DNA of 64,000 nt from Neocallimastix sp. 'constans' (lineage: Eukaryota). Made by a program: the position numbers and the translations under genes. How positions within the stretch are numbered: position 1 is the first letter of the stretch; the number at the start of each line of letters is the position of its first letter. The notes under the pieces were generated by a model. It saw nothing but the letters and a program-made list of their open reading frames with translations, ran no database searches and was not told the DNA's origin. The DNA is taken from contig JBODTK010000119.1 of NCBI GenBank assembly GCA_050613775.1, positions 434,001-498,000 on the forward strand, given 5' to 3'. Below, one piece after another: positions 6,550-44,216 of this stretch.

Positions 6550-7603
6550 CGAATGGTAGACTCGGGGTTGACACTTAGATATTTAAAATCAAGCAGGGGG
6601 GGGACGGGTATTACCCTGCTTTGATTTTAAATAAAAAAAAAAAATAATAATTTTTTTTTTTAAAAGTTATTTATTTATTTTTTTTTATTAATATAAAATT
6701 TTTTATTTAAAGTACACACATTTAATTTTTAAGAAATTGTTACAATATTTATATTTTTTTATAAATTTAAAGTATAATTAATTGTTTATAATTTAAGTAA
6801 TTTTATAGAATTATTGAATTAATTTTATATCAATAATTCATTTTTGTTTTAATTTTTATAAATATAATAATATAATATTCAAATATAATTTAATTAAAAA
6901 TAATTATAAAATAAATATATAGAAAATAGTTTTTACTATTTTCTTTGATATTTTTAAGTTAAATAAATTGTTTTTAAAGATTAATATAATAAATTTAATA
7001 ATCTTTAATTATTTTAAATAATACTTGTAATTATTTTCAAAATAAAATAAAATTTTTATAATATTTAATTAATAAATTTGATAATATTTAAATAATAATT
7101 TTTATAATAAGTAAAATTTTTAATAATAATTTTTAATAATAAATTTAATTAATAATCTTAATAATTTTATAATAATATTTAATAGTTATAATATATAAAT
7201 TTTTATAATAATATTTAATAATTTTAATAATTTTATAATATTAATAATTTATAATAATTTTTAGAATAATATTTAATTAATAATTTTAATAATTTTATAA
7301 TAATTTTTATAATAATATTTAATTAATATTTTTAATAATTTAGTATCTTAAAAGTATAATTTTAATATTTACAATTGTATTTTAATATATACATATATTT
7401 AATAATATAACAATAAAGTGATTAATTAAAATTTATTTACATTATTTACAAATTAAAATTAATTTATATCAAAATAAATTAAATTTACAATGAGGTTTAG
7501 GTTATGAAGAATATAGGAAAGTACAATTTAGTAAAGAATTATTAATAATAAAATAAAGGTTATTAATTCATTCTTTACCATGATGCCCCCTCTAAAACTC
7601 AAG

Positions 7604-10600
7604 CTACATCGAAGCTGAGTTATACTTGACTATATTCTTCAAATGAACATTCCTATTCATTTGAATTCCAGAATTTGGATCAGCCAAGGTAACCGTATTA
7701 AATTGTTTTTTTATAACTTTAAGAGGACCAACAAAATAAGGTTCTAGTTTAGTTCTTGAAAAATTTCTAACTAGAACTAAATCACCTTCCCTAATTCTTT
7801 TTCCTTCATTCAAACTATTCTTTTCCTCTCTTCTAGCAGCCCAATACTTATTTGCATTTTTAACATTTTCGGCTGCTTCTAAAGTCCATCGGTAATGATT
7901 TATAAATTTTTCTAACAACACTTCATCCGATGACTTATTAATATCCTTGGTAGGTCTAGCAGCAATATCAAAAGGCTGCTGATCCTCCCTACCATAAACC
8001 AACTCAAAACTTGAATGTTTTGTTACCTTATTTTTGGTAGTTCTAAGAGCCCATAAGGCGGATGGTAAAACTTCATCCCAATCCTTATTCTTAGAACCCA
8101 ACAACCTCAATAACTTGCCGATCTCTTTATTACGGTTTTCCGTAAGTCCATTACTTTCAGGATGATATGTGGAAATAAACTTCACATATACATCATAGAG
8201 ATCTAAAAATATTTTCGTCATGTCCGAGGTGAACTGAACACCATTGTCAGTTGTTATTACCTGTGGAACACCATGACGAGCAAACACATTAATTAAGAAC
8301 TTAATCACATCCTGTGATGTTATATTTTCCGTGGGTTCTGCTTCAACCCATTTGGTGAAGTAATCCACCACAACCATAATATATTGATTATTATTTTTAG
8401 TTTTAATCAAAGGTCCAATAATATCTAAACCCAAATGTATAAAAGGACCTTCTACTTTAGTTGGAATATTTTCTGTAGGTTCTGGATATGGTTGTGACCT
8501 ATTCAACTGACACTTGTCACAACTTTGCACCACTCTTTTAATATCCATCACCATATTATTCCAATAAAAACTTTTACGAAGCCTTTGATAAGTCTTATAA
8601 TATCCCTCATGACCTATCTTATGGGCTTCTAAAATAAGTTTTACTCTTTCCGTTTGATCCGTAATTAATTTACGATAGTCATTACCATCAACAAAATAAT
8701 CTTCACCATCTATCGTAACAAATTTTTCATTTATAAAGTCTTTAATAGTTTTAGAAAGCAACTCTTCTTCTTCCTTTGAAGTTAACTTAGTTGCCAATAC
8801 CACAGAATCATCTCTTTTCTTCATCCTAGATAATGCATCGGCTAACACATTTTTCTTACCCATTTGATATTGAATTTCAACACCAAGGGTACTAACAGTT
8901 AAGCACCACCTTGCTTGCCTAGCATTATTAGGTTCCTTATTTTTAAAGAAACTGATTAAAGGTTTATGATCTGTTATTACTACTGTTTTATTAGGATTTC
9001 CTAATATATAAGATTTCAACTTAGTAATACAATAAATTAATGCAGCTCCTTCCAAGTCAGTAATGCCATAATTTTTCTCGGCTTTACTTAAACTTCTACT
9101 TATATAATGAACTGGATGTTCCTTTTTGGTTTCTAAATCTTCTTGGAGTAATACTCCTCCAATACCTTCATAGGAAGCATCCGTTCTAATTATAAACCTT
9201 TGATTAAAACTTGGATATTTTAAAATTGGAGCATTTATTAACTTTTCTTTTAACAGATCAAAACTTTGTTGATGTTCATTATTCCATTTATATTTAACAT
9301 TCTTTCTTAATAATTTACATAAAGGAGCAGAGATTTGGGCATATTTATCAATAAAGTTTCTATAATATCCTACTGCTCCAAGAAAAGATCGTAATTCATG
9401 AACATCAACAGGTGCTACCCACTCCTTGATAGCCTTAATTTTGCTATCCTGGGGACTTAAACCTTTCACTGATGCCTTATGACCTAAGACTTCTACTTCA
9501 GTCTGCATAAAGGCACATTTTTCAATGTTAATTTTTAATTTGTGTTGGCGAAATACTTCCAACACTTGCCTAATGTGGCTTATATGTTCTTCTATACTCT
9601 TAGAGTATATTAAAATATCATCTATAAAGTTAAAAACAAACTTTCCTATAAATGGGAAAAGAATCCTATTCATTTCCCTTTGAAATGTAGCTGGGGCTCC
9701 GGTTAAACCAAAAGGCATAACCTTGAATTGGTAGTTACCAAATTTTGTGGTGAAGGTGGTAATTTCTACACTTTCCTCATCCATCAAAATTTGATGATAA
9801 CCAGAGTAAAGATCCATTGTTGTAAAAATCTGTGCCCCATCTAAACTATCAAATATCTCATCAATGTAAGGTAATGAATAAGAATCTTTAACTGTTAAAT
9901 CATTAACCTTACGATAATCAATACATAATCGCCATTTACCGTTCTTCTTCGGTACTAACACTATTGGCGATGACCATTCGGAACAAGAAGGTTCAATTAA
10001 TTTCTTATTAATTAATTTAATTAATTCCTCCTTAAGTATATCCGACTTAAATTTAACTAATCTATAGCACCTTTGCTTAACTGGTTTCGCACCAGGAATT
10101 AAATTAATCTTATGTGGAGGAAGATCAGAAGGTGTTAATTCTTCTGAAGAAGTAGCAACTATTTCTAAGTTCTCCTCCAGAATTTTAATTATTTCATCTT
10201 TATATTTTTCGTTTAAAGTATTTAGGAAAATTTCATGATGAATATATTGCTTTGGGGATAATCCTTCAATTTTCTTTAAATCATTCTTTTTGGAATCCTC
10301 ATCCAAAGCCTTAATCATACACAACAACTTTTCTTCATCTTCATAATCATTATTAATAGGTGCAATAACGTCAATTACTCCCTCAGGAGTAATTTGACAC
10401 AAACTATATAAAATGGGGTGGATAAACAAATTATAATCAATTTGGGTTTTTAAGTTAATTAGAATATCGTAAAAAGGATCCTCCTTTTCTACTATTCTAC
10501 AATTAACCATTAATACAAGATTATTAATCTTTACTGGCACCCGAATGATATAACCTTCCGAGTAATCATCATTCTTAGTTGCCAACCTAATTCTGCCACG

Positions 10601-11653
10601 ACTAATATCAATAGGTTCATATTCGGACGGAAGCTTATCTAAAAATTGTTGAGTAATTATACTTAAATTACTACATGAATCAATTAAAGCCTTCCCCGAA
10701 ACACCTTCAACTGTAACATCAACCATGGCAATATCCTCTTCACATGGTTCGTTACCTTTACTTTTATAAGTGTGGTCTATGTTATTAACGACCACAGTCG
10801 TGGCTGACACATTATCCAACACCCCAGAGATATTAGATTGGTCCCTATCCAATTTAATACCCTGTGACACCTTATATCTTAATTTTGGAGCAGCATCCAA
10901 TAACTGTCCAAAAGTAATATTGCAATGGGCAGAATTTAAATCTTTAAGAATATCATATTCTTCTTCCCCCGATTGCATCTTAATTTTCCTAGATACTCTA
11001 GAACTTTTATTTTCTTTTTGAGTATCTTTATCTTTACTAATTAACACCTTTGTTAAATCAATTACTTTATTATTCTCCTTCACAATACTTTTTTTATTAT
11101 CATTATTTTCTTTCATTAAATTTTTATTCTTTCTTTTATCATTATTTACATTATTTATAATAACTTCATCATTCACTAATGAATTATTATTAATATTATC
11201 ATTACTATTATCATTACTATGATTATTACTATAATTAGTATTACTATTACTAGCTCTTTCATTATCACGAATTTGTCTTTCAATCTCTTTTTCTTTTTCA
11301 ATTCGTGGTTGAGCTAGAATAGATGGTTTAATTTGTTTAACAATTTTATTACTTATATTATTTTCTTTTACTTCTCGTTCTTTCTGTTTTCGTAATGCAG
11401 GAGTTATTATAGGTTTAGGATTCTCCTTCAACGACTTATGAATCCTTTTCTCTGCACTACCTTCATCATTATTAACATCATAAATTTTACGTTTAGATGC
11501 TCCTACTAAATAATCAACTTTCTTTTTATTAACCACCCTTTTATTAGCAGGAGTTTCTTCAATATTAGAAAGACGAGAATTTTTAATTTCTTTTTGATAT
11601 TTAAGTGAAGCTGCTTTATTAAGTATGGGAGAGCTTCTTATCCCATTACTCAA
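7604..11653 (-). CDS. pol: Pol polyprotein PR-RT-RNaseH-IN, expressed by -1 frameshift
   Basis: LIDSCS protease, FIDD RT, TDAS RNase H, H..H/C..C and DDE integrase, GPY/F-like tail; gypsy domain order. Confidence 0.95.
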   Translation of the reverse strand: MSNGIRSSPILNKAASLKYQKEIKNSRLSNIEETPANKRVVNKKKVDYLVGASKRKIYDVNNDEGSAEKRIHKSLKENPKPIITPALRKQKEREVKENNISNKIVKQIKPSILAQPRIEKEKEIERQIRDNERASNSNTNYSNNHSNDNSNDNINNNSLVNDEVIINNVNNDKRKNKNLMKENNDNKKSIVKENNKVIDLTKVLISKDKDTQKENKSSRVSRKIKMQSGEEEYDILKDLNSAHCNITFGQLLDAAPKLRYKVSQGIKLDRDQSNISGVLDNVSATTVVVNNIDHTYKSKGNEPCEEDIAMVDVTVEGVSGKALIDSCSNLSIITQQFLDKLPSEYEPIDISRGRIRLATKNDDYSEGYIIRVPVKINNLVLMVNCRIVEKEDPFYDILINLKTQIDYNLFIHPILYSLCQITPEGVIDVIAPINNDYEDEEKLLCMIKALDEDSKKNDLKKIEGLSPKQYIHHEIFLNTLNEKYKDEIIKILEENLEIVATSSEELTPSDLPPHKINLIPGAKPVKQRCYRLVKFKSDILKEELIKLINKKLIEPSCSEWSSPIVLVPKKNGKWRLCIDYRKVNDLTVKDSYSLPYIDEIFDSLDGAQIFTTMDLYSGYHQILMDEESVEITTFTTKFGNYQFKVMPFGLTGAPATFQREMNRILFPFIGKFVFNFIDDILIYSKSIEEHISHIRQVLEVFRQHKLKINIEKCAFMQTEVEVLGHKASVKGLSPQDSKIKAIKEWVAPVDVHELRSFLGAVGYYRNFIDKYAQISAPLCKLLRKNVKYKWNNEHQQSFDLLKEKLINAPILKYPSFNQRFIIRTDASYEGIGGVLLQEDLETKKEHPVHYISRSLSKAEKNYGITDLEGAALIYCITKLKSYILGNPNKTVVITDHKPLISFFKNKEPNNARQARWCLTVSTLGVEIQYQMGKKNVLADALSRMKKRDDSVVLATKLTSKEEEELLSKTIKDFINEKFVTIDGEDYFVDGNDYRKLITDQTERVKLILEAHKIGHEGYYKTYQRLRKSFYWNNMVMDIKRVVQSCDKCQLNRSQPYPEPTENIPTKVEGPFIHLGLDIIGPLIKTKNNNQYIMVVVDYFTKWVEAEPTENITSQDVIKFLINVFARHGVPQVITTDNGVQFTSDMTKIFLDLYDVYVKFISTYHPESNGLTENRNKEIGKLLRLLGSKNKDWDEVLPSALWALRTTKNKVTKHSSFELVYGREDQQPFDIAARPTKDINKSSDEVLLEKFINHYRWTLEAAENVKNANKYWAARREEKNSLNEGKRIREGDLVLVRNFSRTKLEPYFVGPLKVIKKQFNTVTLADPNSGIQMNRNVHLKNIVKYNSASM

Positions 11654-11659
11654 TTTAAA
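11607..11659 (-). promoter_or_regulatory. -1 ribosomal frameshift signal: U UUA AAU plus H-type pseudoknot
   Basis: Slippery heptamer just before the gag stop; stems AUGGGA/UCCCAU and GAAGC/GCUUC. Confidence 0.8.
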
Positions 11660-12333
11660 CGTTTATTGTTTCTAATTTCCTTCCTATTTTTCTCAACAAT
11701 TGCTCTCAACTTTGGGCAATTGTTTTGATAATGACCTGGTTCTTTACAGAAATAACAAGCCTTTATTGTTAAACTTCTCATTTTTCTTGTTAATTCCTCT
11801 ATGTCATTATCTTCTTTAGGTTTAATATTAACTTTTTGTTCTAATTTATTTTTAATAGGAGGATGAAAATTAACTCTATTATTAAAAGAAGATATATTTG
11901 CAGAAGGTGAAGGGGTAGAAGGATGTCTTCTTTGATTACTACCCATATAATTTAACCTATCTGCTTTTTCAGCAATTTTAAAGGCTTTTGACAGAGAAAT
12001 GTTATCAAATAAGGTTAGACGTTTCCAGGCTTCAACATTGTTTTCAATGGAGTCTGTGTAATCTAAAACACTTATCTGACTTCTTTTCTTTTTATTTAAT
12101 TTTAAATATAAAGTTTTATACTTAATATTAAAATCCTTGATTCTTTCATTTCTCTTAATTCTTAGAGCACGTAGCTCTCTTAATAAATTATTTTGATCCT
12201 CCCTAATGCCATAAAATTCTTCTATAGCTTTTACAATTCTATTAAGGGAAGGATAAGCTTTATTCTTTTTATCAATTTCTTTATCTTCTTCATTATCATC
12301 ATCCTCATCTTCATCATTAATATCCTTATAATT

Positions 12334-12370
<37 letters not shown>

Positions 12371-12600
12371 CTATCATCATCTTTATTATTATCATCCATT
12401 AATTCTTGGATGACTTTCCTGGTTTCACCAATTGAGGTTAAAACACAGGCATAAAATATAATCTTGGAGTCTTCAACATGTTCAAGCTTTATCCAAAGCT
12501 CTAAATCAGACTTCCAAGTTTTAACATCTAAATTTTCTTTGGATATTTTTTCAATATCCTTAAGTTCTTTTTTTAAATCTTTAAAATTAATTGAACTCAT
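11650..12600 (-). CDS. gag: Gag with acidic insert and CCHC knuckle
   Basis: CYFCKEPGHYQNNC; lies upstream of pol. Confidence 0.93.
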
Positions 12601-12970
12601 TTTAAAAAAAACACACTTTTAAAAAAAAATAAAATAAAAAAATTGATTTATTAATTATTTAATTGCTATATTTTTATTTATTTATTTATTTATTTACAAT
12701 TAAAATTATATATTTAAGTAATTTATATCTCTAGTGAGACGTTTCCGGCTAGTGTATATTTAATTTTGCTATATACACCCGTACTCCCCCTCCTGGACAC
12801 TAGAATAAATATAAATTAATAAACTAGTTGGAGTGTTCACTATTCTTTCAAGCTAATAACCCCTTTCGTTTATCTTTACTTAAATAAAAAAAATATATAC
12901 AATTATTTACAAAAAAAATTTTTTTTTTTTTTAATATAGCAATTAAAAATATTTAAAAACACAAAAATTA

Positions 12971-13001
<31 letters not shown>

Positions 13002-13589
13002 ATTTATTTATTTATTTGTTATCGGTTATTATTACAATATTTACAATTACAATTACAATTACAATTATTATTAAGTTTATATAATTACAACTTAAAAAAA
13101 ACAAATAAACTTAATTAAAAACAAGGTAAATTAACAAACCTAATACAACTTGAAAAACCGCTATCTATTACAACTGCCGACCACGCAGAGGGACCTTAGT
13201 ATTTCGGTATACTAAGTGAATTTGCCTGAGTCAAGTGGAGGAGCACCCAAACCGTGTTGAACGTATAATGGGTGATCTATAGGGTAATTTCTGCTTCCCA
13301 ACAGTATTTACCGCTATATCTAATCGGGGTTCGATTAGTTCGTAACCGGCCCCTCTCCAAACACCTGATTAAACCACTCGCAATTATAGAATTATCTATA
13401 ACTGCTTAGTACGCAGTAAACTCAGTATATAGTTTTATTTGGAGCACGCGAAGACCAAATAAAACTGATGTTAATTTTTATTACTACCACAACAACAACA
13501 ATCACAACAACAACACCAACCACAACAACAACACAAAAACCGATAACAATAAAAAAAAAATTTGATGATGATGATTGTAAAAGTGTAAA

Positions 13590-13647
<58 letters not shown>

Positions 13648-13744
13648 TAATTTAATTTAATTTAATTCTATTAAATTTAATTTAAAAAAATTATTCTCAT
13701 AATTCCAAAAAAAAAATAAGTCCTAGTAGTTCCAATTTCCTTCT

Positions 13745-14162
13745 TGGTCTTCTCCTTCTTGGTCTCTTCTTCTTGGTCTTCTTCTTGGTTTTCTTCTTGG
13801 TCTTCTTCTTGGTTTTCTTCTTGGTCTTCTTCTTGGTTTTCTTCTTGGTTTTCTTCTTGGTTTTCTTCTTGGTTTTCTTCTTGGTCTTCTTCTTGGTTTT
13901 CTTCTTGGTCTTCTTCTTGGTTTTCTTCTTGGTTTTCTTCTTGGTTTTCTTCTTGGTTTTCTTCTTGGTCTTCTTCTTGGTCTTCTTCTTGGTTTTCTTC
14001 TTGGTCTTTTTCTTGGTCTTCTTCCACTTGGTTTTCTTCTTGATCTTCTTTTTCTTGGTCTTCTTCCACTTGGTTTTCTTCTCGATCTTCTTTTTCTTGG
14101 TCTTCTTCCACTTGGTCTACTTCTTCTTCTTCTTCTTCTTCTTCTACTTCTTCTTCTTCTTC

Positions 14163-14194
<32 letters not shown>

Positions 14195-14291
14195 CTTCTT
14201 CTTCTTCTTCTTCTTCTTCTTCTTCTTCTTCTTCTTCTTCTTCTTCTTCTTCTTCTTCTTCTTCTTCTTCTTCTTCTTCTTCTTCTTCTTC

Positions 14292-14323
<32 letters not shown>

Positions 14324-14329
14324 CTTCTT
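13745..14329. repeat. (TTC)n microsatellite (~14120-14329) plus 12-bp minisatellite TCTTCTTGGT(T/C)T in the E2 leader
   Basis: Directly visible; begins immediately 3' of the PBS on the element strand. Confidence 0.95.
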
Positions 14330-15398
14330 CCCCGATATCTCCACCAATTTTGGTAGACTCGGGGTTGACACTTAGATATTTAAAATCAAGCAGGGGGGGA
14401 CGGGTATTACCCTGCTTTGATTTTAAATAAAAAAAAAAAATAATAATTTTTTTTTTTAAAAGTTATTTATTTATTTTTTTTTATTAATATAAAATTTTTT
14501 ATTTAAAGTACACACATTTAATTTTTAAGAAATTGTTACAATATTTATATTTTTTTATAAATTTAAAGTATAATTAATTGTTTATAATTTAAGTAATTTT
14601 ATAGAATTATTGAATTAATTTTATATCAATAATTCATTTTTGTTTTAATTTTTATAAATATAATAATATAATATTCAAATATAATTTAATTAAAAATAAT
14701 TATAAAATAAATATATAGAAAATAGTTTTTACTATTTTCTTTGATATTTTTAAGTTAAATAAATTGTTTTTAAAGATTAATATAATAAATTTAATAATCT
14801 TTAATTATTTTAAATAATACTTGTAATTATTTTCAAAATAAAATAAAATTTTTATAATATTTAATTAATAAATTTGATAATATTTAAATAATAATTTTTA
14901 TAATAAGTAAAATTTTTAATAATAATTTTTAATAATAAATTTAATTAATAATCTTAATAATTTTATAATAATATTTAATAGTTATAATATATAAATTTTT
15001 ATAATAATATTTAATAATTTTAATAATTTTATAATATTAATAATTTATAATAATTTTTAGAATAATATTTAATTAATAATTTTAATAATTTTATAATAAT
15101 TTTTATAATAATATTTAATTAATATTTTTAATAATTTAGTATCTTAAAAGTATAATTTTAATATTTACAATTGTATTTTAATATATACATATATTTAATA
15201 ATATAACAATAAAGTGATTAATTAAAATTTATTTACATTATTTACAAATTAAAATTAATTTATATCAAAATAAATTAAATTTACAATGAGGTTTAGGTTA
15301 TGAAGAATATAGGAAAGTACAATTTAGTAAAGAATTATTAATAATAAAATAAAGGTTATTAATTCATTCTTTAGCACGAATCTTAAAAATAATTAACT

Positions 15399-15452
15399 TG
15401 TCTTAGTTGTTAGTAACTAAGTCACCGATTTGAACTTCTCGAGTTCAAATCC
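15399..15452 (+). promoter_or_regulatory. Pol III type-2-like A box (degenerate TGTCTTAGTTG) and B box (GAGTTCAAATCC) in the C LTR; second copy at 29651-29704
   Basis: B box fits GTTCRANNC; A-to-B spacing 44 nt as in tRNA genes; T5 run at 15463-15467. Confidence 0.6.
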
Positions 15453-15921
15453 GCATAATTTCTTTTTATAAAAAAATTTATTTTAAAAAATTCTTATCTT
15501 ATCAAAAATTATTTTAAAAAGTTCTTATCTTATCAAAAAAAATTTTTTTTTATCAAAAATTTTATCAAATTATCTTAATTGGTTTAAAATTACATCATAA
15601 AAAATTTCTTTTGAAAATTTTTTGTATAAATACGAGTGAATTTTTCTTCAAAAAATATTTTTAAAAAATCGTGTTTTTTATTAATTATTTAATAAGTAAT
15701 TTAATTACAAATTTTTAATTAATAAATAAAAAAAAAAAATAAAAATAAAAATAAATTTTAACTTTAAAAAAAATAATAAATTCTTTTTTATTAAAAAACT
15801 TTTTACTTATTTATTTTTTATACAAACCTAGTGGTGTTAATTATTTTGGGTTACGCCCCGAATTCACGTTACAATAAAAAACACCACTGAAAAGAACCAC
15901 TACCTTTGTATAAATTCTTTC

Positions 15922-16099
15922 TTTTGGTTTCTACCCTTCAAGATATACTTTTGGTTTCTACCCTTCAAGATATACTTTTGGTTTCTACCCTTCAAGATAT
16001 ACTTTTGTTTCTACCCTTCAAGATATACTTTTGGTTTCTACCCTTCAAGATATACTTTTGGTTTCTACCCTCCAAGAAATACTTTTGGTTTCTACCTTC
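15922..16099 (+). repeat. 27-bp tandem repeat (TTTTGGTTTCTACCCTTCAAGATATAC) in the C leader, about 6.5 copies; continues at 24708-24780
   Basis: Directly visible; split by the solo LTR S insertion. Confidence 0.9.
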
Positions 16100-16597
16100 T
16101 GTAACGAAATCTTCATGATAAGAATGTACTAAATAATGCATTCTTAATTAAATCTACGATTTATTTCTAATACATTATGTGTACATTATTATTTTTGTAC
16201 TTTAATAAATTTTTAAATCCAAAGATCAAAAATTAAATCAAAAATTATATTAAACTTTATATTTTTATATTAAATCTTATATTAATAGTAATATTTTTAT
16301 ATATTTAAAACTTATATTAGCAATATTAATAATAAATCTTATTTTTTTTATATTAATAATGAAAATTTATATTAATAATATTTTTATATATTGATAATTA
16401 AAAATTTATATATTATATTTTAACTTTTTATTATAAAATTTTATATCGAAATGTTTTATTTTATATTGAAAAATATTTTATTTTATTAAAAACCTTTATA
16501 TTAGAATAGTATTTTTATTTTTATTTGAATATTTTAACAGATTGTAATAAAAATTTTAGCCAATTAAATAAATTCTTATTAGTAATATTTTAGATAG

Positions 16598-16645
<48 letters not shown>

Positions 16646-18314
16646 TATTAATATTATAAATGCATTTTATTTATATTGTTATAATTAAATTTTATATAAT
16701 TGATTATAAAAATCAATTTAAATTTAATAGTTTCATATATAAAAAGAAAAATAATAATAAAATGTAATTTAGTGGCAAGAACAACTTTTATGCCTTGAAA
16801 AAAAAGTATAAATAGTTGTAAATTTTGCTACTAATTTTTAAATATCATCAAATAAAATCAAATAAATTTATAAATAAAAATAATAAATAAATAAATAAAA
16901 TTTGTGTTTCCTTACTTTATTTTTATTTAATTCTCTAAAACCTTAACATTTATATGGTGGAGATATCGGGGAATTAAATAGAAATAATAGTAAATAACAT
17001 AGATTTTTTTTTAATTTTTTTTTTATTTTATATTGATAAACAAGTAAGTCGTTAATCCTTTGATTAACCCATGGCGCTTGTTTGATATATATATATAAAA
17101 AAATTTTTTTTAAATAAGTAAAATTAAGATTCTAAAAAAACAAATTTTGTAAAATTATAACAAGGAGCGGATAGAGCTCATACACAGTGTATTCTCAGAT
17201 AGCAACAAATTAACTCTATTCATAGTAGGTTATTGAATAGTAGTTAATTTGGAGATTAATTGGAAAGTAGACGAAGGTATTTGGTTACCGACCCGGTAAT
17301 AATAGTTCAACCTTCAACGTTTCAACACACGAAGGTGCGGGTACTTTCCAAGCACTGGCGAATAAGGAGCTTACGTCACCGAAGGCGTAAGATTGTTTTT
17401 TTTATATAATTTTTTTTACTTTTCTTTGTGCTAGTTATAAGGCACTTTATTATATAAAGTATCAGACTTTGGCTAACTTCGCCATTTAAATTTTTTTTAT
17501 TTTTTTTTATTACTGGTACTTTATTTGTTATATAATTCCTGTAATAGAATCTTAATTTACTTTGAAAATATTGTGTTTTTAGTTAATTTTTATTAGTTAA
17601 TAAAAATATTATTGAATACTTTTAAAATTTTTTTATTCCGTACATAGATTATCGGATTAAGTTTATCCTACATAGTAATTGGGCTAGTGGGCTCTGAACT
17701 GCTATATTTTATATTGAATATAGTAATCGTGGCACACGCGTGGCATGACACCATTAGGTAAGCTGCACGTCAGACAGTGTGTACTATCAGATTGTACGAC
17801 AATAAAGATTATTTTTTTGTATTTAATAATTATAATTAATTAATAATTTTATTAGCTATAACAATACAATATTTATCGTTTAAAAAGAAAAATTTTTGAA
17901 AGGTGAAAATAATAAATAAAACTTTGCTTCTAAATTTATTACTACAAATATACTAAATTACAAAATTCAAGTGGTCGATAAAGATTTCGAGCTTGAAAAA
18001 TATTCTATTAAGTTGTCGATAAAGATTTCGAACTTAAAATTATTCTATTAAGTTGTCGATAAAGATTTCGAACTTAAAATTATTCTTAAAAAAGTAGTCG
18101 AAAAGAACCTCGTGCTTTATAATTTCTACTAAGTTGTCGATAAGGATTTCGAGCTTATATCTACTAAAGAAAGCAAATAAAATTATTATTTTCAAAAGTT
18201 ACTAAAATATATTGTTTTAAAAATTGATTCGATATTAAATTACCTATTAAATTACATTTTGAAAGTTGGATTTCCCAAATTTATTTGTATTTAATCACCT
18301 CATATTTAGACAAA

Positions 18315-19226
18315 ATGTCCAAAGAAACAACTTTGAGCTTTAAAGAATTGAAAAAAGAATTGAGAGATATTGTGAAACTTAGCAAGGACAATTTAGATAT
18401 TAAGTCCTGGGCTACTGAATTGAAACTTTGGATCAAGATACAAGGTATCACAGATCCAGAAACAATATTTAATGCTTGTTTACTTACCAGCTCTGGTGAA
18501 GTACAACGCGTTATTGAAGATTTGGGAGAAGATAGTGATGATGAAAGTGATGATTCATCAGATGAAGAAGAAGAACATGATGAAGAAGAAAATGTTGATG
18601 ATGATATTAAATTTCCTTCTCTTGGAAAAATTATTTCAAGTCTTGAAAATTTTTACGGTATTAAAGAAGACCAAAATTTACTTCTTAAAGAACTTCGTGC
18701 AATGCGAATTAAAAGAAACGAAAAGATTAAGGACTTTAATGTAAGATATAGAACTTTGTACACTAAACTTGATAAAAAGAGAAGAAAGCGCATCGGTGTA
18801 CTAGATTATATTGATTCTATTCAAAATAATTATGAAGCCTGGAAGAAATTATCCCTTAAAGATGATATAAGTATGGAGAAAGCTTTCAAAATTGCCGAGA
18901 AAGTAGATAGACTTTCTGTAAGGAACAATAATATTAATACCTATAATGTTAATAATTCCCAGCATAATCAAAATAATCAAAACAGTACTACTTCAAGACT
19001 TTATCCTAAAAGAAGAAACGAAACTTTCCAAACAAGTCAAACAAATAATAAACTGAAACCTCAAGATATTATAGAAGAATCAACCCAGAAAATGAGAAAT
19101 TTATCTGTTAAAACTTGCTTCTTCTGTAAGGAAGAAGGTCATTACTCATACTATTGCCCTCAATTAAATAAGATTATGGAAAAAAATAAAAAAGAAATAT
19201 ATTCCAAAAAGTCTTTAAACTTCTAA
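18315..19226 (+). CDS. gag: Gag with CCHC knuckle
   Basis: ATG at 18315 (MSKETTLSFKELKKEL); CFFCKEEGHYSYYC; homologous to E2 Gag. Confidence 0.93.
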   Translation: MSKETTLSFKELKKELRDIVKLSKDNLDIKSWATELKLWIKIQGITDPETIFNACLLTSSGEVQRVIEDLGEDSDDESDDSSDEEEEHDEEENVDDDIKFPSLGKIISSLENFYGIKEDQNLLLKELRAMRIKRNEKIKDFNVRYRTLYTKLDKKRRKRIGVLDYIDSIQNNYEAWKKLSLKDDISMEKAFKIAEKVDRLSVRNNNINTYNVNNSQHNQNNQNSTTSRLYPKRRNETFQTSQTNNKLKPQDIIEESTQKMRNLSVKTCFFCKEEGHYSYYCPQLNKIMEKNKKEIYSKKSLNF

Positions 19227-19266
19227 ATGGGAGCAGAAGCACTCCCAATGACAAAACAATAGCTTC
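19214..19266 (+). promoter_or_regulatory. -1 frameshift signal: U UUA AAC plus H-type pseudoknot
   Basis: UUUAAAC at 19214-19220; stems UGGGAG/CUCCCA and GAAGC/GCUUC; the -1 frame is open into pol. Confidence 0.85.
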
Positions 19267-22200
19267 ATTAAATAATTTACAAAATAATACTTTTACTAAG
19301 AATACTCCAATTGATAATAATTCCTTTAATGAAGAATCTGAAGAATCTGATTTTAGTGACACAACTGAAAGTGAGGATGATATCATTATAAATGCTATAA
19401 AAAGAAAAATGAATGATAATAACAGCGAAAAAGAAGAAAATAATTCCAAGAAAGTACATAAAAGTTTAAAAGATAATCCACGTCCTTTCGCAACTCCTGC
19501 TTTAAGAAAGAAGAAAGAAAATGAGCTACATAATAAACCAAATAAAGTTTATAAAAATCAAATACTTCCTTCAATTTTAACTCAACCAAATATTAACAAA
19601 GAAAAACAAAAAGAAAAGGAATTAAGAAAAATAACAAGAGTAAGAGAAAGTAAAGAAGAAAACAACAATTATTCATCAAAAGGAAAGGAAAAAGTTGAAT
19701 CTGAAGATATACTCGTAATCGATAATGAAATAGAAGATCTAGAAATGAATAAAGATAATCAACAAAATAAAACTAATACTTTGGAAAAATTAATTTCAAC
19801 AAAAACTAAAGAAACTAATAATGGAAATACTCAGTTAGTAAAAAGGAATATTAAAATGATGAATAATAAAGAACCTTACAATATTATGGATGATTTAAAT
19901 AATCTTAAATCCAGTATTACGATAGGTCAACTCTTGAATGCATGTCCGAAAATTCGTTCACAATTAACTCAAGGTTTAAAGTTAGAAAAGTCTAAAATAA
20001 TTGGGACTGTAGACAATGTAATAGCACGAACTTTATTAGTAAATAACTATGATCATAGCTACATAAGTAAAAGTAATGAAGTAGCCGAAGAAGACTTAGC
20101 AATGGTTGATGCAAGTGTTGACGGAGTACTAGGAAAACTTTTAATTGATTCTTGTAGTAACCTAAGCATCGTTACTAAGCAGTATTTTGATAAATTACCT
20201 GGTGAATATGAAACAGTTGGAAAAAGTCGTGGAAGAATCCAACTAGCAACACAAGATGAAGAATACTCGGAAGGAATTATTGTTCGATTACCAGTAAAAA
20301 TTAATAATTATGAATTTAATGCGGACTTTAGAATTATTGAGAAAGAAGACTCTTTTTATGATATGTTAATAAACTTTAAAACTCAAATCGATCATTGTTT
20401 ATTTATTCATCCGACCTTAAACAGTTTATGTAAACTTTTGTCAGAAAGTGAATACGAAGAAATAGCTAAAATAAATAATCAATATTATGATGAAGAAAGT
20501 ATAATTTGCACTATTAGAAAAGTTAAAGAAACGAATAATGAAAAGGAAATTATAAAGGAATTAACTCCAATGGAATTTATTGAGAGTGATGAATTTTTAA
20601 GTACCTTAAATAAAGATTATAAAGAACAAATTATTAAAATTCTCAAAGAAATGATTGACATAGTTGCCACTTCAACAGAAGAACTAACTCCTTCTAAACT
20701 TTCACCACATAAGATCCGTTTAAAAGCAAATGCAAAGCCAGTAAAATTAAGAAGTTATAGGTTAACTAAATTAAAATCAGATATCTTAAAAGAAGAACTT
20801 ACAAAACTTATTAAGAAAGGATTGATAGAACCATCCTGTTCAGAATGGTCATCTCCAGTAGTACTTATTCTAAAACACAATGGAAAGTGGCGCTTGTGCA
20901 TTGACTACCGAAAAGTCAATGATATGACAGAAAAAGATTCTTATTCAGTTCCATATATAGATGAAATTTTTGATAGTCTCGGAGGATCTAAAATATTTAC
21001 AACTCTTGATTTATTTTCTGGTTTTCACCAAATCTTAATGGATGAAGAAAGCGTTGAAGTAACCACTTTCACTACTAAGTTTGGAAATTATCAATTTAAG
21101 GTTATGCCTTTTGGACTTACTGGAGCTCCCTCAACCTTCCAAAGAGAAATGAATAAAATTTTATTCCCTTTTATTGGTGAATTTGTTTATGTATTTATTG
21201 ATGATGTTTTGATCTATTCAAAAAGTATCGAAGAACATTTAATTCATATTAAACAAGTATTAGAAGTATTTAAAGAAAACAAGTTAAAAATTAATATTGA
21301 AAAGTGCCATTTTCTTCAAACTGAAGTTGATGTATTAGGTCACAAACTTACTACTAAAGGATTAAGTCCCATGGAAAGTAAGATAACAGCTATTAAGAAG
21401 TGGGAAGCCCCTTCATCACTTCATGAATTAAGATCATTTTTAGGAGCAGTGGGATATTATCGTGATTTTATTCCTAAATATGCTCAAATTACCTCACCTT
21501 TATGTAAATTATTGAAAAAGAATACTAAATATGAATGGAATAAAGAACAACAAGAAAGCTTTGAACTCCTAAAAGAAAAATTAATCAATGCACCTATTCT
21601 AAAATTTCCGTCATTTGACAAACCTTTTATCATTAGAACTGATGCTTCGTATAATGGAATTGGTGGAGTTCTTTTACAAAAAGAAGAAGAAACCGGTAAG
21701 GAGCATCCAATACACTTTATAAGTAGAAGTTTAAAGAAAGCTGAAAAGAATTATGGTATTACCGATTTAGAAGGAACCGCTTTGTTTTACTGTATGACTA
21801 AATTTAAATCTTATATTGAAGGAAATCCATTACCTACAACTATTTACACAGATCATAAACCATTAGTTGGTTTATTTAAGAATAAAGAACCTTTGAATGC
21901 AAGGCAAACAAGATGGTGTCTAACCGCTAGTATGCTTGGAATTAATATAAAATATGAATCAGGCAAAAAGAATGTGTTAGCTGATGCTCTTTCAAGAATG
22001 AAAAGTAAGGAAGAGAGAAAGATATTATTAACAAAAATTACTAATGGAAATAATGAAGAATTATTATCTAAGGTTATAAAGGAATTTATTAATGAAAAGT
22101 TTACTGTTATTGATGGTGAAGATTACTTTATCGACAATGGAAATTATAGAAAATTAATAACGGACGAAAATGAAAGGTTTAAATTAATTTTAGAAGCTCA

Positions 22201-23224
22201 TAATATTGGCCACGAAGGATATTACAAAACATATCAAAGACTTAAGAAAAACTTTTATTGGAATCATATGATTAAAGATATCAAAAGAATTGTTAGTAAT
22301 TGTGAAAAATGCCAATTAAATCGTCCTCAACCATATCCAGAACCAACCGAAAACCATCCAACTAAAGTGGAGGGTCCCTTTGTGCATTTAGGATTAGATA
22401 TTATAGGACCGTTACCAAAAACAAGAAATAATAATCAATATATTATAGTAACTGTTGATTACTTTACCAAATGGGTTGAAGCCGAACCCACTGAAAACAT
22501 AACTTCCTCTGATATAATTAAATTTTTAATAAACGTTTTTGCAAGACATGGTGTACCTCAAGTTATTACTACTGATAATGGAGTCCAATTCACTTCTGAT
22601 ATGACTAAAATCTTTCTTGATCTTTATGATGTATATGTTAAATTTGTAGCTACTTACCACCCTGAATCAAATGGCCTTACTGAAAATCGAAATAAAGAAA
22701 TTGGAAAATTACTCCGTTTATTAGGAAGGAAAAATCAAGATTGGGATGAAGTTTTACCTTCTGCTTTATGGGCACTTCGAACTACCAAAAATACAGCTAC
22801 TGGACATTCTAGTTTTGAATTAGTATATGGAAGAGAAGACCAACAGCCTTATGATATAGCCATAAGAACAATTGAAAATGCAGGTAAATCATATGATGAA
22901 ATCTTAATGGAAAAATTTGTTCGTCATTATCAATGGACTAGAGAAGCATGCGAAAATGTGAAGAATGCTAACAAGTATTGGGCAACAAGACGAGAAGAAC
23001 AAATAAGTATGAAAAAAGGAAAAGAATTAAAGGCTGGTGATCTTGTTCTTGTTAGAAACTTTAGCCGCACTAAGCTAGAACCATATTACAATGGACCATT
23101 TAAAATTTTAAAAATTCAATTCAACACGGCAACCCTAATCGATCAGAAGACTGGAAAGCAACTCGATAGGAATGTTCACTTTAAAAATTTAGTAAAGTTT
23201 AACTCCGCTTACAGAGAAGCTTGA
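19214..23224 (+). CDS. pol: Pol polyprotein PR-RT-RNaseH-IN
   Basis: LIDSCS, FIDD, TDAS, HHCC/DDE, GPF motif; frame open from the slippery site, upstream of the ATG at 19409. Confidence 0.95.
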   Translation, partial: FKLLNGSRSTPNDKTIASLNNLQNNTFTKNTPIDNNSFNEESEESDFSDTTESEDDIIINAIKRKMNDNNSEKEENNSKKVHKSLKDNPRPFATPALRKKKENELHNKPNKVYKNQILPSILTQPNINKEKQKEKELRKITRVRESKEENNNYSSKGKEKVESEDILVIDNEIEDLEMNKDNQQNKTNTLEKLISTKTKETNNGNTQLVKRNIKMMNNKEPYNIMDDLNNLKSSITIGQLLNACPKIRSQLTQGLKLEKSKIIGTVDNVIARTLLVNNYDHSYISKSNEVAEEDLAMVDASVDGVLGKLLIDSCSNLSIVTKQYFDKLPGEYETVGKSRGRIQLATQDEEYSEGIIVRLPVKINNYEFNADFRIIEKEDSFYDMLINFKTQIDHCLFIHPTLNSLCKLLSESEYEEIAKINNQYYDEESIICTIRKVKETNNEKEIIKELTPMEFIESDEFLSTLNKDYKEQIIKILKEMIDIVATSTEELTPSKLSPHKIRLKANAKPVKLRSYRLTKLKSDILKEELTKLIKKGLIEPSCSEWSSPVVLILKHNGKWRLCIDYRKVNDMTEKDSYSVPYIDEIFDSLGGSKIFTTLDLFSGFHQILMDEESVEVTTFTTKFGNYQFKVMPFGLTGAPSTFQREMNKILFPFIGEFVYVFIDDVLIYSKSIEEHLIHIKQVLEVFKENKLKINIEKCHFLQTEVDVLGHKLTTKGLSPMESKITAIKKWEAPSSLHELRSFLGAVGYYRDFIPKYAQITSPLCKLLKKNTKYEWNKEQQESFELLKEKLINAPILKFPSFDKPFIIRTDASYNGIGGVLLQKEEETGKEHPIHFISRSLKKAEKNYGITDLEGTALFYCMTKFKSYIEGNPLPTTIYTDHKPLVGLFKNKEPLNARQTRWCLTASMLGINIKYESGKKNVLADALSRMKSKEERKILLTKITNGNNEELLSKVIKEFINEKFTVIDGEDYFIDNGNYRKLITDENERFKLILEAHNIGHEGYYKTYQRLKKNFYWNHMIKDIKRIVSNCEKCQLNRPQPYPEPTENHPTKVEGPFVHLGLDIIGPLPKTRNNNQYIIVTVDYFTKWVEAEPTENITSSDIIKFLINVFARHGVPQVITTDNGVQFTSDMTKIFLDLYDVYVKFVATYHPESNGLTENRNKEIGKLLRLLGRKNQDWDEVLPSALWALRTTKNTATGHSSFELVYGREDQQPYDIAIRTIENAGKSYDEILMEKFVRHYQWTREACENVKNANKYWATRREEQISMKKGKELKAGDLVLVRNFSRTKLEPYYNGPFKILKIQFNTATLIDQKTGKQLDRNVHFKNLVKFNSAYREA

Positions 23225-23724
23225 GTCTTCGTCGGGGCATCTTGATAAGAATGTACTAAATAATGCATTCTTAATTAAATCTACGATTTATTTCTAATAC
23301 ATTATGTGTACATTATTATTTTTGTACTTTAATAAATTTTTAAATCCAAAGATCAAAAATTAAATCAAAAATTATATTAAACTTTATATTTTTATATTAA
23401 ATCTTATATTAATAGTAATATTTTTATATATTTAAAACTTATATTAGCAATATTAATAATAAATCTTATTTTTTTTATATTAATAATGAAAATTTATATT
23501 AATAATATTTTTATATATTGATAATTAAAAATTTATATATTATATTTTAACTTTTTATTATAAAATTTTATATCGAAATGTTTTATTTTATATTGAAAAA
23601 TATTTTATTTTATTAAAAACCTTTATATTAGAATAGTATTTTTATTTTTATTTGAATATTTTAACAGATTGTAATAAAAATTTTAGCCAATTAAATAAAT
23701 TCTTATTAGTAATATTTTAGATAG

Positions 23725-23772
<48 letters not shown>

Positions 23773-24098
23773 TATTAATATTATAAATGCATTTTATTTA
23801 TATTGTTATAATTAAATTTTATATAATTGATTATAAAAATCAATTTAAATTTAATAGTTTCATATATAAAAAGAAAAATAATAATAAAATGTAATTTAGT
23901 GGCAAGAACAACTTTTATGCCTTGAAAAAAAAGTATAAATAGTTGTAAATTTTGCTACTAATTTTTAAATATCATCAAATAAAATCAAATAAATTTATAA
24001 ATAAAAATAATAAATAAATAAATAAAATTTGTGTTTCCTTACTTTATTTTTATTTAATTCTCTAAAACCTTAACATTCAGTTAGTAAAATTAGAACTT

Positions 24099-24151
24099 TG
24101 GTTCAATGGTTAGTTACATTGACCATGACCAATACTTCATGGGTTCGACTC
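24099..24151 (+). promoter_or_regulatory. Pol III A box (TGGTTCAATGG) and B box (GGGTTCGACTC) in solo LTR S
   Basis: Both boxes are close to tRNA consensus; 44-nt spacing; T4 run at 24165-24168. Confidence 0.75.
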
Positions 24152-25173
24152 ACACCTCAACCCATTTTGCATAAATAATTATTTTATTAATTATTTTATT
24201 AATTATTAATAATATTTTCTTGAATATTCTTTCTGTATAAAATTATAGAAAGTTAAAGATTCTTTCGGTTCGTAATTCAACCGAAATGAATTTAGAAATT
24301 CTTATTATATAAATTATTTTATTCTTTTTTGATAAGATTCATTTTCATCAATTAAAATCTATATTCTAGAAACTTTACATTATTAATTATTACAAACATA
24401 TTTCTAAATATTTCTTTAAAATTATTTTTACATGTTAAAACTGTTTTTCCGTTAAAAGTATAAATAGTGCGAACTTCACGAATGAAAATATTTTTCTTCG
24501 TGCTTTTATTAATAATAATTAACGTATAAGTAATTCGAAATATTACCTTGTTGATTAATATTAATAATTATTTTAAATTTTATAATTAATAAAAAATATT
24601 TCTAATAAAACGAATTATTTATACAGATAGTGTAAACCTATTGAGTTTTCTCCTTTCTGTGTTTCTATATCTCATCCCGCCTTTACAATAGAAGCACCTC
24701 CGTTACACCTTCCAAGAAATACTTTTGGTTTTTACCTTTCTTTGATTTCAAGATATACTTTGGTTTCTACCTTTCAAGTTTTACCTTTAGTTACTACTTT
24801 GAATTCTTACTTTAGGCTCCTATATTTTTGCATTATTCAGTGTTTCACTGTGCTTCAACGTTGAATTTCTACCTTTGAGCTTTACTTTTTGTATTTACTT
24901 CTTGTTTTTACTGTTTTGAGTCTTTTCTACCTTTTAGTATTATCCTCTTTATTGGTATCCCTACAACTACTTTGGTGAACTTCTATTCAGATATATTCCC
25001 TTGGTTTTCCAATTACTCCAGGACTTAATTCTACTATTTGATTTCTTACTACTAGTAAACCTTGTGTTTTAAAGCAATCCTAAACATCCTAAAAATATAA
25101 AATTTAGGTTCAGTCTAACAAAATTTATAATCGTATTCAAATCTTGATAAAATTCTTAAAAATTTAATTTAAA

Positions 25174-28100
25174 ATGGAAGATCAAAATAATATTTTAAAT
25201 AATGCTACTCTTAAAGATGGTTTTGCAGGAGACCGTCGTTACTTAAAGGGTTTTTTAGCAAAAATTGAATTGGTTTTTATGCTGTACCCAGACAGATACA
25301 ACACCGATGAAGCTAAAGTCATATATCTTATATCTAGACTTTACGGTGATGCTATGAACTGGGCAGCTACTTTAATTGAAAACAGGGATGACTGTCTTGG
25401 AGATTATCAAGCATTTAGAGAAAGAATGAAAGCTGTTTTCGGAGACAACGACTCAGTATTTATCGCCAATCAAAAACTACGTGTAATTAAACAACGAAGA
25501 CTTGGTGATATTACAAGTTATATTAATGAATTTAATAAATATTCCGATAATTCTTCTTGGAATGAGGATGCAAAAATGGATGCTTTCATTGATGGTCTTC
25601 AAGATTCTATTGCAACAAGAATATTAGAAATGTTTCCTGGTCCCAGAAATCTCCTTTCCCTTCAAACTATTGCAGCAAGAATTGATTCTAGAATTTCTAC
25701 ACATAGACAATTTTTTAATCATAATAAGCATTCAAATGATAATAAAACATGTCCAAAGTTTACTCCAAAAAAGAAATCTTCAAATAACAATAATAAATCT
25801 TTTAGTAAGCTTTCTAATGAAGAAAGAGAAAGAAGAATTAGAGAACATCTTTGTCTTTATTGTGCCGATCCAGATCACATTCGTGAAAATTGCCCTAAAT
25901 TAAAAAAGAATAAACCTTCTTCAAGTTCTCACATTTCAAATCCTGTTTTAAATTCAACTCTTAGGCCAAGAATTTCTGACCAACCTAACCACAGGCTTCC
26001 AATCTTTGATTTCACTCTTTCTATTTCGGACGTTTCAGTTAATTCAAAGATTCTTCTGGATTCAGGTTCTCAACTTAATCTTATGGACGTTTATTACGCT
26101 AAAGAAAATAACATTCCCTATAATGAAAATTCTAAATTACCGAGCGTTTCCGGTATTGGAGGTGATCAATTAATTCTGGGAAAAACTTTACCAATATCAC
26201 TCAAATACGGAAATCACATTTGTCAAGCTGAATTCTACATTGTTGATTTACCCTCTTACTGTGCTATACTTGGTACTGACTGGTTATTCACACACAATCC
26301 GACAATAAATTTCGTAACTAAAGAACTATCCTTTAAGTCTAGCAATTGTATTTCAAATTGTTTACTAACTCCAAATTCTTTTACAGCTCATATTTCTTCT
26401 CCTACAACTGTCCCTTCTACAAAAGAAAAGGAACCTGCTACTGTTGATAGAATATTAAAATTATTGCCTACTATACTTCAACCTTATAAAGATATTTTTG
26501 ATGAAGGATCTGCAAACATATTACCACCACATAGGCAGTATGATTGTGAGATTAAGCTTAAGCCTAACTCTATCCTTTATTATGGCCCTATCTACCCGCT
26601 TACTGATGCTGAGTCTAAAGCTCTTAAAGAATATATTGAAGAAAATCTCTCAAAAGGCTTTATTCGTAAATCCAAATCTCCTGCTGGTGCTCCTGTATTT
26701 TTCGTTTTTAAGAAGAATGGTGAATTACGTATGGTTGTTGATTACAGAAAACTTAACGAAATAACAATTCGGGACTCTTATCCATTACCACTTATTAATG
26801 ACATGCTCGAACATTTAGGTAAAGGTAAAGTATTTTCAAAACTCGATCTCCGTTCTGCATATAATCTTGTAAGAATAAAAGAAGGAGACGAGTATAAAAC
26901 AGCTTTTACCTGCAAGTATGGCCACTTTGAATATTTGGTTATGCCTTTCGGGTTAAAAAATGCCCCAGCTGTTTTCCAACACTTCATTAATGATGTATTC
27001 GAAGATATTCTTGGTACATATGTCTACTGTTATATCGATGATATTATAATCTTCTCCCCAGATATGTCTTCTCATTTTGAACACGTTATCGAAGTTCTCA
27101 AAAGACTTCGTAAAGCTGGTCTTTTTGCGAAACTAGAAAAATGTGAATTCTTTGTCTTACTTAGATTTCTTTGGTCATAGAATTTCTGCTACAGGTATAT
27201 TTATGGATCCCAAAAAGATTTCTTCAATTCTTGAATGGCCTACTCCAACTTGCGTAAAAGAAATTCAATCTTTCCTTGGACTCACAAATTATTATAGAAG
27301 ATTTATTCCTGGATTTGCCAAGTTAGCCCATCCACTTAATCATCTTTTAAGAAAGAACGTTAAATTTGTATGGTCAATTGAAGCTCAAGAAGCTTTTGAT
27401 AATATTAAATCGAAATTTTCCTCTTCTCCGGTCCTTGCTTACCCTGATCGTAACCTACCCTTCACTGTTGAAACTGACAGCAGTAATTTTGCAATCGGTG
27501 CTGTCCTTTCTCAAAAGACTCCTAAAGATAATAAAGTTCATCCTATTGCCTTTTATTCAAGATCTCTCTCTCCTGTTGAAAGAAATTATCCAATTTACGA
27601 TAAGGAACTTTTAGCTATTATTGATTCTTTAGAAAATTGGAGACACTTTCTAAAGGGTGCGACTCATCCTTTTATTATCTACTCTGATCACCGAAACCTG
27701 TTATATCAAAAGAAACCTGAAAAAATGACTCAAAGACTTGTTCGTTGGTCTCTCTTCTTATCAGAATTTAACTTCAAGATTGAATATCGTTCAGGTTCTT
27801 CCAATGGTAAACCCGATGCCTTATCAAGAAGACCTGATTATGCTTTGAATTATGAAATTTCCACTTCTGATATTCCATTTACTGTTCTCCGCCCAGAAAA
27901 CTTTTCTGCTTTTCCAGTCTCTGTTGAAACATTTTCTGAAAAAATCCTTTCCGAATGTAAAACCGATCCATTTTATCATTCCATTTGCGATTACTTAGAA
28001 AACAAGAAATTACCTGTCCCTCATCAAAAAATTAAGGAATTCTCAATTAGTAACAGCTACTTACTTTTCCAAAATAAACTCTATGTTCCTCCCAACTGCC

Positions 28101-44171: not shown

Positions 44172-44216
<45 letters not shown>

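Follow-up and report, generated by a model that had tools for sequence, protein, structure and literature searches.

A structured RNA domain, apparently undescribed, in the 5' leaders of gut-fungal Ty3/gypsy retrotransposons, with signs of module exchange

Outside Ty1 and Ty3, little is known, to our knowledge, about how LTR retrotransposons select their RNA and bring it into pairs. According to PMC6844567, retroviral and Ty1 dimerisation and packaging signals are located near the 5' end, and PMC12786077 describes structured export elements in the mouse LTR elements IAP and musD, as well as export of cauliflower mosaic virus (CaMV) via a structured 5' leader; the CTE and Nxf1 are treated in PMC4338338. 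Here we describe a structured RNA module, real as judged from comparison of related copies and apparently undescribed, that a Ty3/gypsy clade of gut fungi carries in its leader.

The window, i.e. the whole stretch of 64,000 nt of Neocallimastix sp. 'constans' DNA that was analysed, is very rich in AT and harbours a nest of LTR retrotransposons. Two of these, EB and E2, carry the RNA module:

16116..24075, + strand: EB, an intact Ty3/gypsy LTR retrotransposon with an LTR pair and the 4-bp target duplication TTCA
16116-16948 and about 23243-24075, + strand: LTRs of EB, 99.9% identical
16955..16972, + strand: primer-binding site of EB, 18 nt
18315..23224, + strand: gag and pol of EB, with pol in an overlapping frame and the CCHC zinc knuckle of gag a weak Pfam match
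6554..15376, - strand: E2, an intact Ty3/gypsy element with an LTR pair and the 4-bp target duplication TTCG
15376-14351 and 7580-6554, - strand: LTRs of E2, 99.7% identical
14346-14329, - strand: primer-binding site of E2, the same 18 nt as in EB
12600, - strand: gag ATG of E2

Both elements have gag followed by reverse transcriptase (RT), RNase H and integrase in this order (Pfam), and together with the LTRs, primer site and target duplication this identifies them as Ty3/gypsy. The gag zinc knuckle and a pol with RT, RNase H and integrase are common to both, with 71% DNA identity between the pol regions and 53% identity between the Gag proteins. The 18-nt primer-binding site is identical in all eight leaders reaching that far among the matches listed, and its primer is presumably tRNA-Ala, going by the implied acceptor stem (G3-U70 rule); a search of the window found no tRNA gene. 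The primer-site pattern matched twice in viral contigs. An AUG overlaps the primer site in EB, L003 and L012 (16954-16977 of the window, + strand; L-numbers denote related loci from metagenome contigs), and the AUG of EB starts an ORF of 7 codons. Counted from the primer site to gag, the leader measures about 1.35 kb in EB and about 1.73 kb in E2. The Gag protein has 64 relatives, of which the six with a name are all from Orpinomyces (JGI Orpsp1) or Neocallimastix, and faecal metagenomes are among the sequencing runs containing the stretch of the window, which makes an anaerobic gut fungus the likely host; no relatives were found with Gag and Pol searches of viral contigs or a Gag search of prokaryote genomes.

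Several other features of the nest were recorded. A TATA-like word (16805-16813, + strand) is conserved in the LTRs of several families, being also present upstream of the primer site in L003, L004, L007 and L012, and the E2 LTR has a strong GC-rich hairpin near its U5 end (14375-14425), followed at the start of the E2 leader by about 600 nt of GAA/GACCAA repeats without U on the sense strand (14330-13730, - strand). A third gypsy element (15376-30142, LTRs at 15376-15876 and 29628-30142) has its leader interrupted by EB and its 5' LTR abutted by E2. Two chromodomain gypsy elements (30398-37182 and 42897-50129) are 89% identical, the former with an in-frame stop at 35812, ahead of the SH3 and chromo domains, and there are copia fragments at 40548-42932, 50117-51850 and 52792-57435, as well as a long imperfect inverted repeat at 38647-38910 (about 80% complementary).

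The module, which we call domain B, lies between the primer-binding site and gag in both EB and E2. The sequence-only reading had placed a conserved multibranch RNA domain in the leaders of both retrotransposons, and this is supported; its EB span of 17260..17391 does hold conserved RNA domain but is too short, as the domain extends beyond it:

17160..17485, + strand: domain B of EB at full extent, about 330 nt, containing 17260-17391
17185-90 with 17352-57, + strand: outer helix P0 (span 17185..17357), enclosing an inserted long arm (about 17193-17255) and P1
17260..17351, + strand: helix P1, enclosing hairpins H0 and P2
17284-17300, + strand: hairpin H0 with the RACCC loop, inside P1
17310-17336, + strand: hairpin P2 with the UUCAACA loop, inside P1; its ACCUUC strand has a rival partner at 17273-78
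17356-62 with 17478-84, + strand: predicted long helix X, enclosing the ACCGAA hairpin (17370-91) and H3, with a local rival at 17470-73
17428-45, + strand: hairpin H3, inside helix X
13124..13470, - strand: domain B of E2, matched by hand and with a covariance model
13368-62/13237-31 and 13359-55/13240-36, - strand: helices P0 and P1 of E2
13338-20, 13274-44, 13216-13195 and 13188-74, - strand: hairpins H0 (AACCC loop), P2, ACCGAA and H3 of E2
13318-13278, - strand: extra arm of E2
13227-19/13132-24, - strand: helix X of E2

The individual words and pairings first read from the sequence are in place. In EB, the closing stem UUGGAAAGUA (17260-69) with UACUUUCCAA (17342-51) is paired at 10/10 positions, ACCUUC (17310-15) and GAAGGU (17331-36) can pair at 6/6, GGCGAAU is present at 17357-63, and in the hairpin CUUACGUC (17370-77), ACCGAA, GGCGUAAG (17384-91) all 8/8 are paired. 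On the minus strand in E2 the corresponding parts are the closing stem UGGAG (13359-55) with CUCCA (13240-36), paired 5/5 and weakly predicted (probability 0.14, with rival pairings), CACCCA (13274-69) with UGGGUG (13249-44), paired 6/6, GGCAAAU at 13226-20, and CUUAGUAU-ACCGAA-AUACUAAG at 13216-13195, paired 8/8. Shared parts that had been overlooked are the outer helix P0, the RACCC hairpin, H3 and the long helix X, while each of the two elements also has a private arm in B. The description of conserved loops on rewritten stems holds for the UUCAACA and ACCGAA loops, to which RACCC is added as a third shared loop, on a fully rewritten stem. It is not supported for GGCRAAU, which varies in E2-like contigs, for which each of the three full copies offers a pairing partner further downstream (7/7 in EB, 7/7 with wobbles in L003, 8/9 in E2), and which by these predicted pairings is probably a helix strand rather than a loop. 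The partner of ACCUUC in EB is likewise only partly as described: the downstream GAAGGU is pairable (probability 0.38), but the upstream GAAGGU at 17273-78 is predicted more often (0.62), and in L003 the upstream partner has 0.95 vs 0.04 for the downstream one, with no clear counterpart of this rivalry in E2. Helix X of EB forms in a fold of the sub-domain but has a probability of only 0.16 in the whole-domain fold, and in both EB and E2 its 3' strand can close a local 4-bp hairpin instead, whole-domain folds giving the long form a low probability. Predicted rival pairings of this kind make an RNA switch possible.

The evidence for selection comes mostly from EB and L003; the sample for B consists of three full copies (EB, L003 and E2, from two independent lineages) and about four partial haplotypes. 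EB and L003 differ in 41 of 349 aligned columns. These differences make up 8 compensatory pairs and 3 changes that are one-sided but consistent, and they leave no pair broken, a level of covariation reached by 0/200 column shuffles; the consensus energy z is -7.5. Five of the compensatory pairs are in the inserted arm and three in the ACCGAA stem, where three adjacent pairs are all swapped around an unchanged loop; the span first proposed (17260-17391), taken alone, has 3 compensatory pairs, reached by 1/200 shuffles. Identity between the two copies is 94% in this core, 73% in the linkers and 85% in gag DNA. In single-sequence folding the original EB span is weak (z -1.9), and the larger regions reach z -3.6 and -3.9. 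The sense strand of B folds better than the antisense strand (-83 vs -62 kcal/mol; one-sided wobble changes 3 vs 0), which is expected of an RNA element. The conserved core and a covariation not reached in 200 shuffles indicate that the structure is real as far as two sequences show, and going by these substitutions domain B is under selection for structure.

The relationship of the E2 copy to the EB copy was assessed with a covariance model built from EB and L003 only, without E2. The top non-self match of this model in the window was E2 13285-13191, full length and with both hairpins, at 15.2 bits (E 0.036, a rough value), while its best match in 246 kb of unrelated viral DNA, covering 100 of 120 loop-word matches, was partial at 16 bits. 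As partial chance matches reach this level, the score alone is not decisive, and the case is carried by strand, position and the full length of the match. The three loop words were matched 120 times in viral contigs, with ACCGAA closed by a stem of at least 6 bp in 0/120; the 0 matches in 20 Mb of simulated sequence are not a valid test, since that pattern was derived from both copies. It could be argued that both islands are real structures of separate origin which share their words by coincidence (a view that overlaps with other alternatives below), given the score of only 15 bits beside partial chance matches of 16 bits elsewhere, a global identity between EB and E2 of 60%, and the failure of plain alignment, as a whole-region MAFFT alignment of EB, L003 and E2 was misaligned and helices were matched by hand instead. 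Against this, four words occur in the same order and spacing with matching helices, and an E2-like haplotype has EB-like letters at 13248-49. We regard separate origins as very unlikely, and on this sequence evidence the EB and E2 domains are very probably homologous.

About four haplotypes of the region 12640-13520 were found in the contigs of four DNA runs, 77-87% identical over roughly 13166-13310; they were assigned from matching depth figures among the best 40 of 76 rows. Among the matches listed, the wobble 13365-13234 is G-C in some haplotypes and possibly A-U in another, C-to-U changes at 13237, 13243, 13271 and 13274 retain G-U pairs, and a change at 13224 repairs the sole mismatch of E2 helix X, while ACCGAA and UUCAAC are unchanged, which is not significant alone. 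Changes at 13212, 13216, 13225, 13238-40, 13248, 13249 and 13174 (again among the matches listed) break pairs wherever the partner is unchanged. In the haplotype with the best cover 16/21 differences are listed, so that partner changes may be among the remaining five; for both P1 and X the cover extends to one strand and not to its partner. In three E2-like haplotypes among those listed, the part upstream of 13310 is replaced by sequence unlike it.

For a wider view of the leaders, metagenome contigs were scanned with the Gag alignment, giving at least 13 loci, of which L003, L004, L007, L008, L010 and L012 have a complete leader and the other seven listed are cut upstream. The leaders listed consist of one to three GC-richer islands between A/U tracts. 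Domain B is present in 3/8 complete leaders listed (EB, L003 and E2) and was not found in the other 5/8, where a two-sequence model could miss diverged copies; leaders without B carry other domains:

17035..17090, + strand: module A of EB, a hairpin with GUAAGU, by eye common to L003 355-405 at 77% identity
17635..17810, + strand: domain D of EB, a second structured module, identified by covariation and model search
17965..18175, + strand: tandem bulged hairpins of EB just before gag, with similar arrays in L003, L004, L005, L006, L008 and L012
12725..12890, - strand: domain F, the last module of the E2 leader, common to L009 178-360 and L013 125-310

The GUAAGU of module A is a perfect splice-donor-like word about 70 nt past the primer site. 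Domain D is present in L003 966-1143, L007 920-1103, L008 350-531 and L010 319-500 among the matches listed, with a more distant match of the model in L012 400-584 (42.6 bits) and a D-like island in L004, seen by eye at 59-66% identity and not reported by the model. Its structure has 13 compensatory pairs of 53, with 0/500 shuffles as high and slid controls at 0-1, in five related sequences from which the structure itself was derived. By this covariation D is the better supported structured RNA of the two, without an Rfam match, and its pattern gave 0 matches in prokaryote genomes. It is absent from E2, which has F instead. The structure of F is unproven, as its three close copies contain 0 compensatory pairs and thus offer no covariation; read by eye, F is a conserved island with a possible pseudoknot. 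The sequence of the hairpin arrays ahead of gag differs between families, and these arrays are alternative candidates for Gag-binding sites. Extra GC-richer islands in L004 (1850-2160 and 2300-2480) and L012 (870-1030) have no counterpart among the loci listed; an island-versus-island BLAST gave mostly low-complexity noise.

The distribution of these modules does not appear to follow the Gag proteins. Between EB and L010, D is 94% identical in nucleotides at a Gag identity of 56%, while between EB and L012 it is 67% identical at a Gag identity of 53%, and L008, which has D without B, is sister to the E2 clade (96/96) and apart from EB in a 13-row Gag tree with deep branches that are not resolved. 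This uncoupling of D identity from Gag identity suggests module swapping, and the simplest reading of the sequences is that modules have been exchanged between element families by recombination; repeated loss with uneven rates could also leave a patchy set of modules, and is not the simplest reading. A bolder proposal is that these retrotransposons carry a library of large RNA folds, so far undescribed, to which B, D and F belong together with three or more islands of L004 and L012. Such cassettes would be traded between families with proteins of only about 55% identity, and one or more of them would go beyond a plain packaging signal and represent a new class of functional RNA, be it a switch that senses a protein or ligand, a new element that recruits ribosomes or a ribozyme. 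This proposal we consider rather doubtful.

What B does can only be suggested from position and analogy. Its position, its strand and its coexistence with scanning would best fit a cis-acting domain deciding the fate of the full-length RNA, and our leading, still tentative reading, held at somewhat below an even chance, is an optional and exchangeable packaging or dimerisation domain that works with Gag. B would then help Gag to select and pair full-length RNA for particles, folding, as predicted, on its own between A/U-rich linkers, with ribosomes still scanning through it from the cap. Gag or a host protein could dock on the RACCC, UUCAACA and ACCGAA loops, or these loops could make tertiary contacts, and the rival pairings (ACCUUC with either GAAGGU in EB, long vs local X in both) could switch the RNA between a scanned, translated state and a compact, packaged one, while modules might pass between families through template switching between co-packaged RNAs. 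Like a packaging signal, B is in the 5' leader, downstream of the primer-binding site and on the sense strand, but it is not present in all intact members of the clade, having been found in three of the eight complete leaders listed. Its absence from 5/8 means that it cannot be the only packaging signal of the clade, and if B is optional, D, F or the hairpins before gag must serve where it is missing; these are equally good candidates. Nucleocapsid sites are usually G-rich, and the A/C-rich conserved loops of B count against nucleocapsid docking. No conserved long-range partner of at least 6 bp was found for the three loops within the RNA of either element. Dimerisation, one of three functions offered by the sequence-only reading, is disfavoured in the form of a palindromic kissing loop: AACGUU is 6 nt in EB and L003, the palindrome is reduced to 4 nt (ACGU) in E2, and it is lost in two E2-like haplotypes among the matches listed, in which its G is changed.

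The translational alternatives can be weighed against the distribution of start codons. No trinucleotide is as depleted as AUG in seven pooled leaders, where 16 AUGs stand against 96 expected (ratio 0.17) and the next lowest trinucleotide is at 0.70; the ratio for AUG is 0.78-1.17 in control non-coding DNA and 0-0.36 in the leaders of three other elements of the window. There is no AUG inside B in EB, L003 or E2, where a Markov model predicts 2.7-4.7 and base composition about 7. In segment counts that include both EB and its close relative L003, the part ahead of the first module has 3, against about 11 (Markov) or 26 (composition, much of it from the simple repeat of E2), and base composition predicts 69 inside modules, 14 between and 51 after them, against 10, 1 and 4 observed. 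A depletion that spans the entire leader is typical of a 5' UTR that ribosomes scan starting at the cap. It argues both against an IRES that loads ribosomes at B or beyond it and against cleavage that would remove the upstream leader. An IRES or cap-independent translation enhancer for Gag, also among the functions first offered, is disfavoured and unlikely: scanning would be difficult in leaders that are 1.3-1.7 kb long and contain large multibranch folds and C-rich loops, and the sequence downstream of the modules is AUG-poor as an IRES might leave it, but AUG is depleted inside B and before the first module too, B ends 520-830 nt ahead of the gag start codon with another module between, and there is no Rfam IRES match at E up to 10. 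A helper role of B in translation may be compatible with the AUG pattern. The third function offered, a catalytic RNA, would have to belong to a new class, as a known ribozyme is disfavoured by the lack of an Rfam match and the absence from B of the core words of hammerhead, twister, hairpin, pistol, group I and group II. Rfam 15 gave only chance-level matches (best E 1.9), with the window searched at gathering scores and the leaders, B and D at E up to 10; suspected resemblances, of the E2 copy of B to a dicistrovirus IRES and of D to a CTE export element, were not borne out by it. Short invariant single strands on a variable scaffold do resemble catalytic cores, and in one RNA-library contig of low depth 17192 is directly followed by 17349, a joint at the foot of P0, as a self-cleaving or self-splicing RNA removing part of the leader might. 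This sole joint has a depth of 4.4, a 30-nt side and unknown letters between, however, and may stem from a variant element, or from template switching where P0 has its base; moreover, no Rfam ribozyme or intron matches, a loose HDV descriptor has one match in E2 and none in EB or L003, and cleavage would sever the primer-binding site from the genome, which makes a new ribozyme very unlikely. RNA-library contigs cover B without differences in 3/4 runs; such contigs may include DNA and carry no information on strand, ends or level. Their gap in cover at 16742-17062 is a skipped repeat, and no GT..AG joint in the EB leader was seen among the matches listed.

The remaining alternatives leave scanning untouched. 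Recruitment of export machinery to the unspliced genomic RNA, with B as a nuclear export or localisation element, has precedents in IAP, musD and the CaMV leader (PMC12786077), is compatible with scanning and interchangeable modules, and would suit the splice-donor-like word upstream of B in module A; B nevertheless has no Rfam match and lacks a CTE loop word, so that neither sequence nor structure places it with CTE, RTE or MTE, and its absence from 5/8 complete leaders listed also speaks against this role, which we think improbable to about the same degree as an IRES. The self-contained closing helices, the one to three modules per leader listed and the patchy distribution on the Gag tree would also be understandable if B were a hitch-hiking or defensive RNA cassette spreading among families, for example a decoy for RNA silencing or a block to nucleases, but the modules showed neither a target duplication nor an ORF and any decoy or blocking activity is conjectural, so that we find this distinctly unlikely. 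Finally, the CCGA of the ACCGAA loop has its complement in a 4-nt word of the primer-binding site and, presumably, in the freed T-stem strand of the primer, as if B helped reverse transcription to start through additional pairing with the primer tRNA outside the primer-binding site; with only 4-5 bp involved, and with the primer site shared by 8/8 leaders of which 5/8 lack B among the matches listed, this is hardly likely.

The literature accessible to search on structured RNA of Neocallimastigomycota and anaerobic fungi and on LTR retrotransposon leaders yielded no description of B, D or F, and supplements and subscription journals could hold such motifs. With B and D, at least two covarying RNA motifs beyond Rfam 15 are added in a fungal group for which this accessible literature yielded no structured RNAs. 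A clade with one primer site and natural swaps of whole domains also makes the question of RNA selection testable by exchange.

Compared with described systems, B resembles viral IRESs of the picornavirus, HCV and dicistrovirus types in that a long 5' UTR contains a multibranch fold whose conserved loops are short, but it has no Rfam match, is away from the start codon and is AUG-free inside. Like the HDV-like, twister and hammerhead ribozymes of retroelements, it is a structured RNA carried by a retroelement, yet without core motifs and in an internal position of the genome, past the primer site, instead of at an end. The RTE of IAP, the MTE of musD and the CaMV leader are likewise large structured domains of retroelement RNA with long-range helices, from which B differs by the lack of a sequence or model match and by its fungal host; the CaMV leader, moreover, is rich in short ORFs and shunted, whereas the leader with B is nearly AUG-free. 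With the retroviral Psi/DIS leader and the PAL1-3/SL1 elements of Ty1 it has in common that a structured RNA acts in cis close to the 5' end of the genome of an LTR retroelement, as well as a CCHC-type Gag and alternative pairings, but unlike these B is about 330 nt long, has no conserved palindromic loop, is optional within its clade and is one of several modules in a leader of 0.5-1.8 kb. As judged from these likenesses, B would belong with the leader cis-elements of LTR retroelements, a known kind, to which the signs of a swappable module set add interest.
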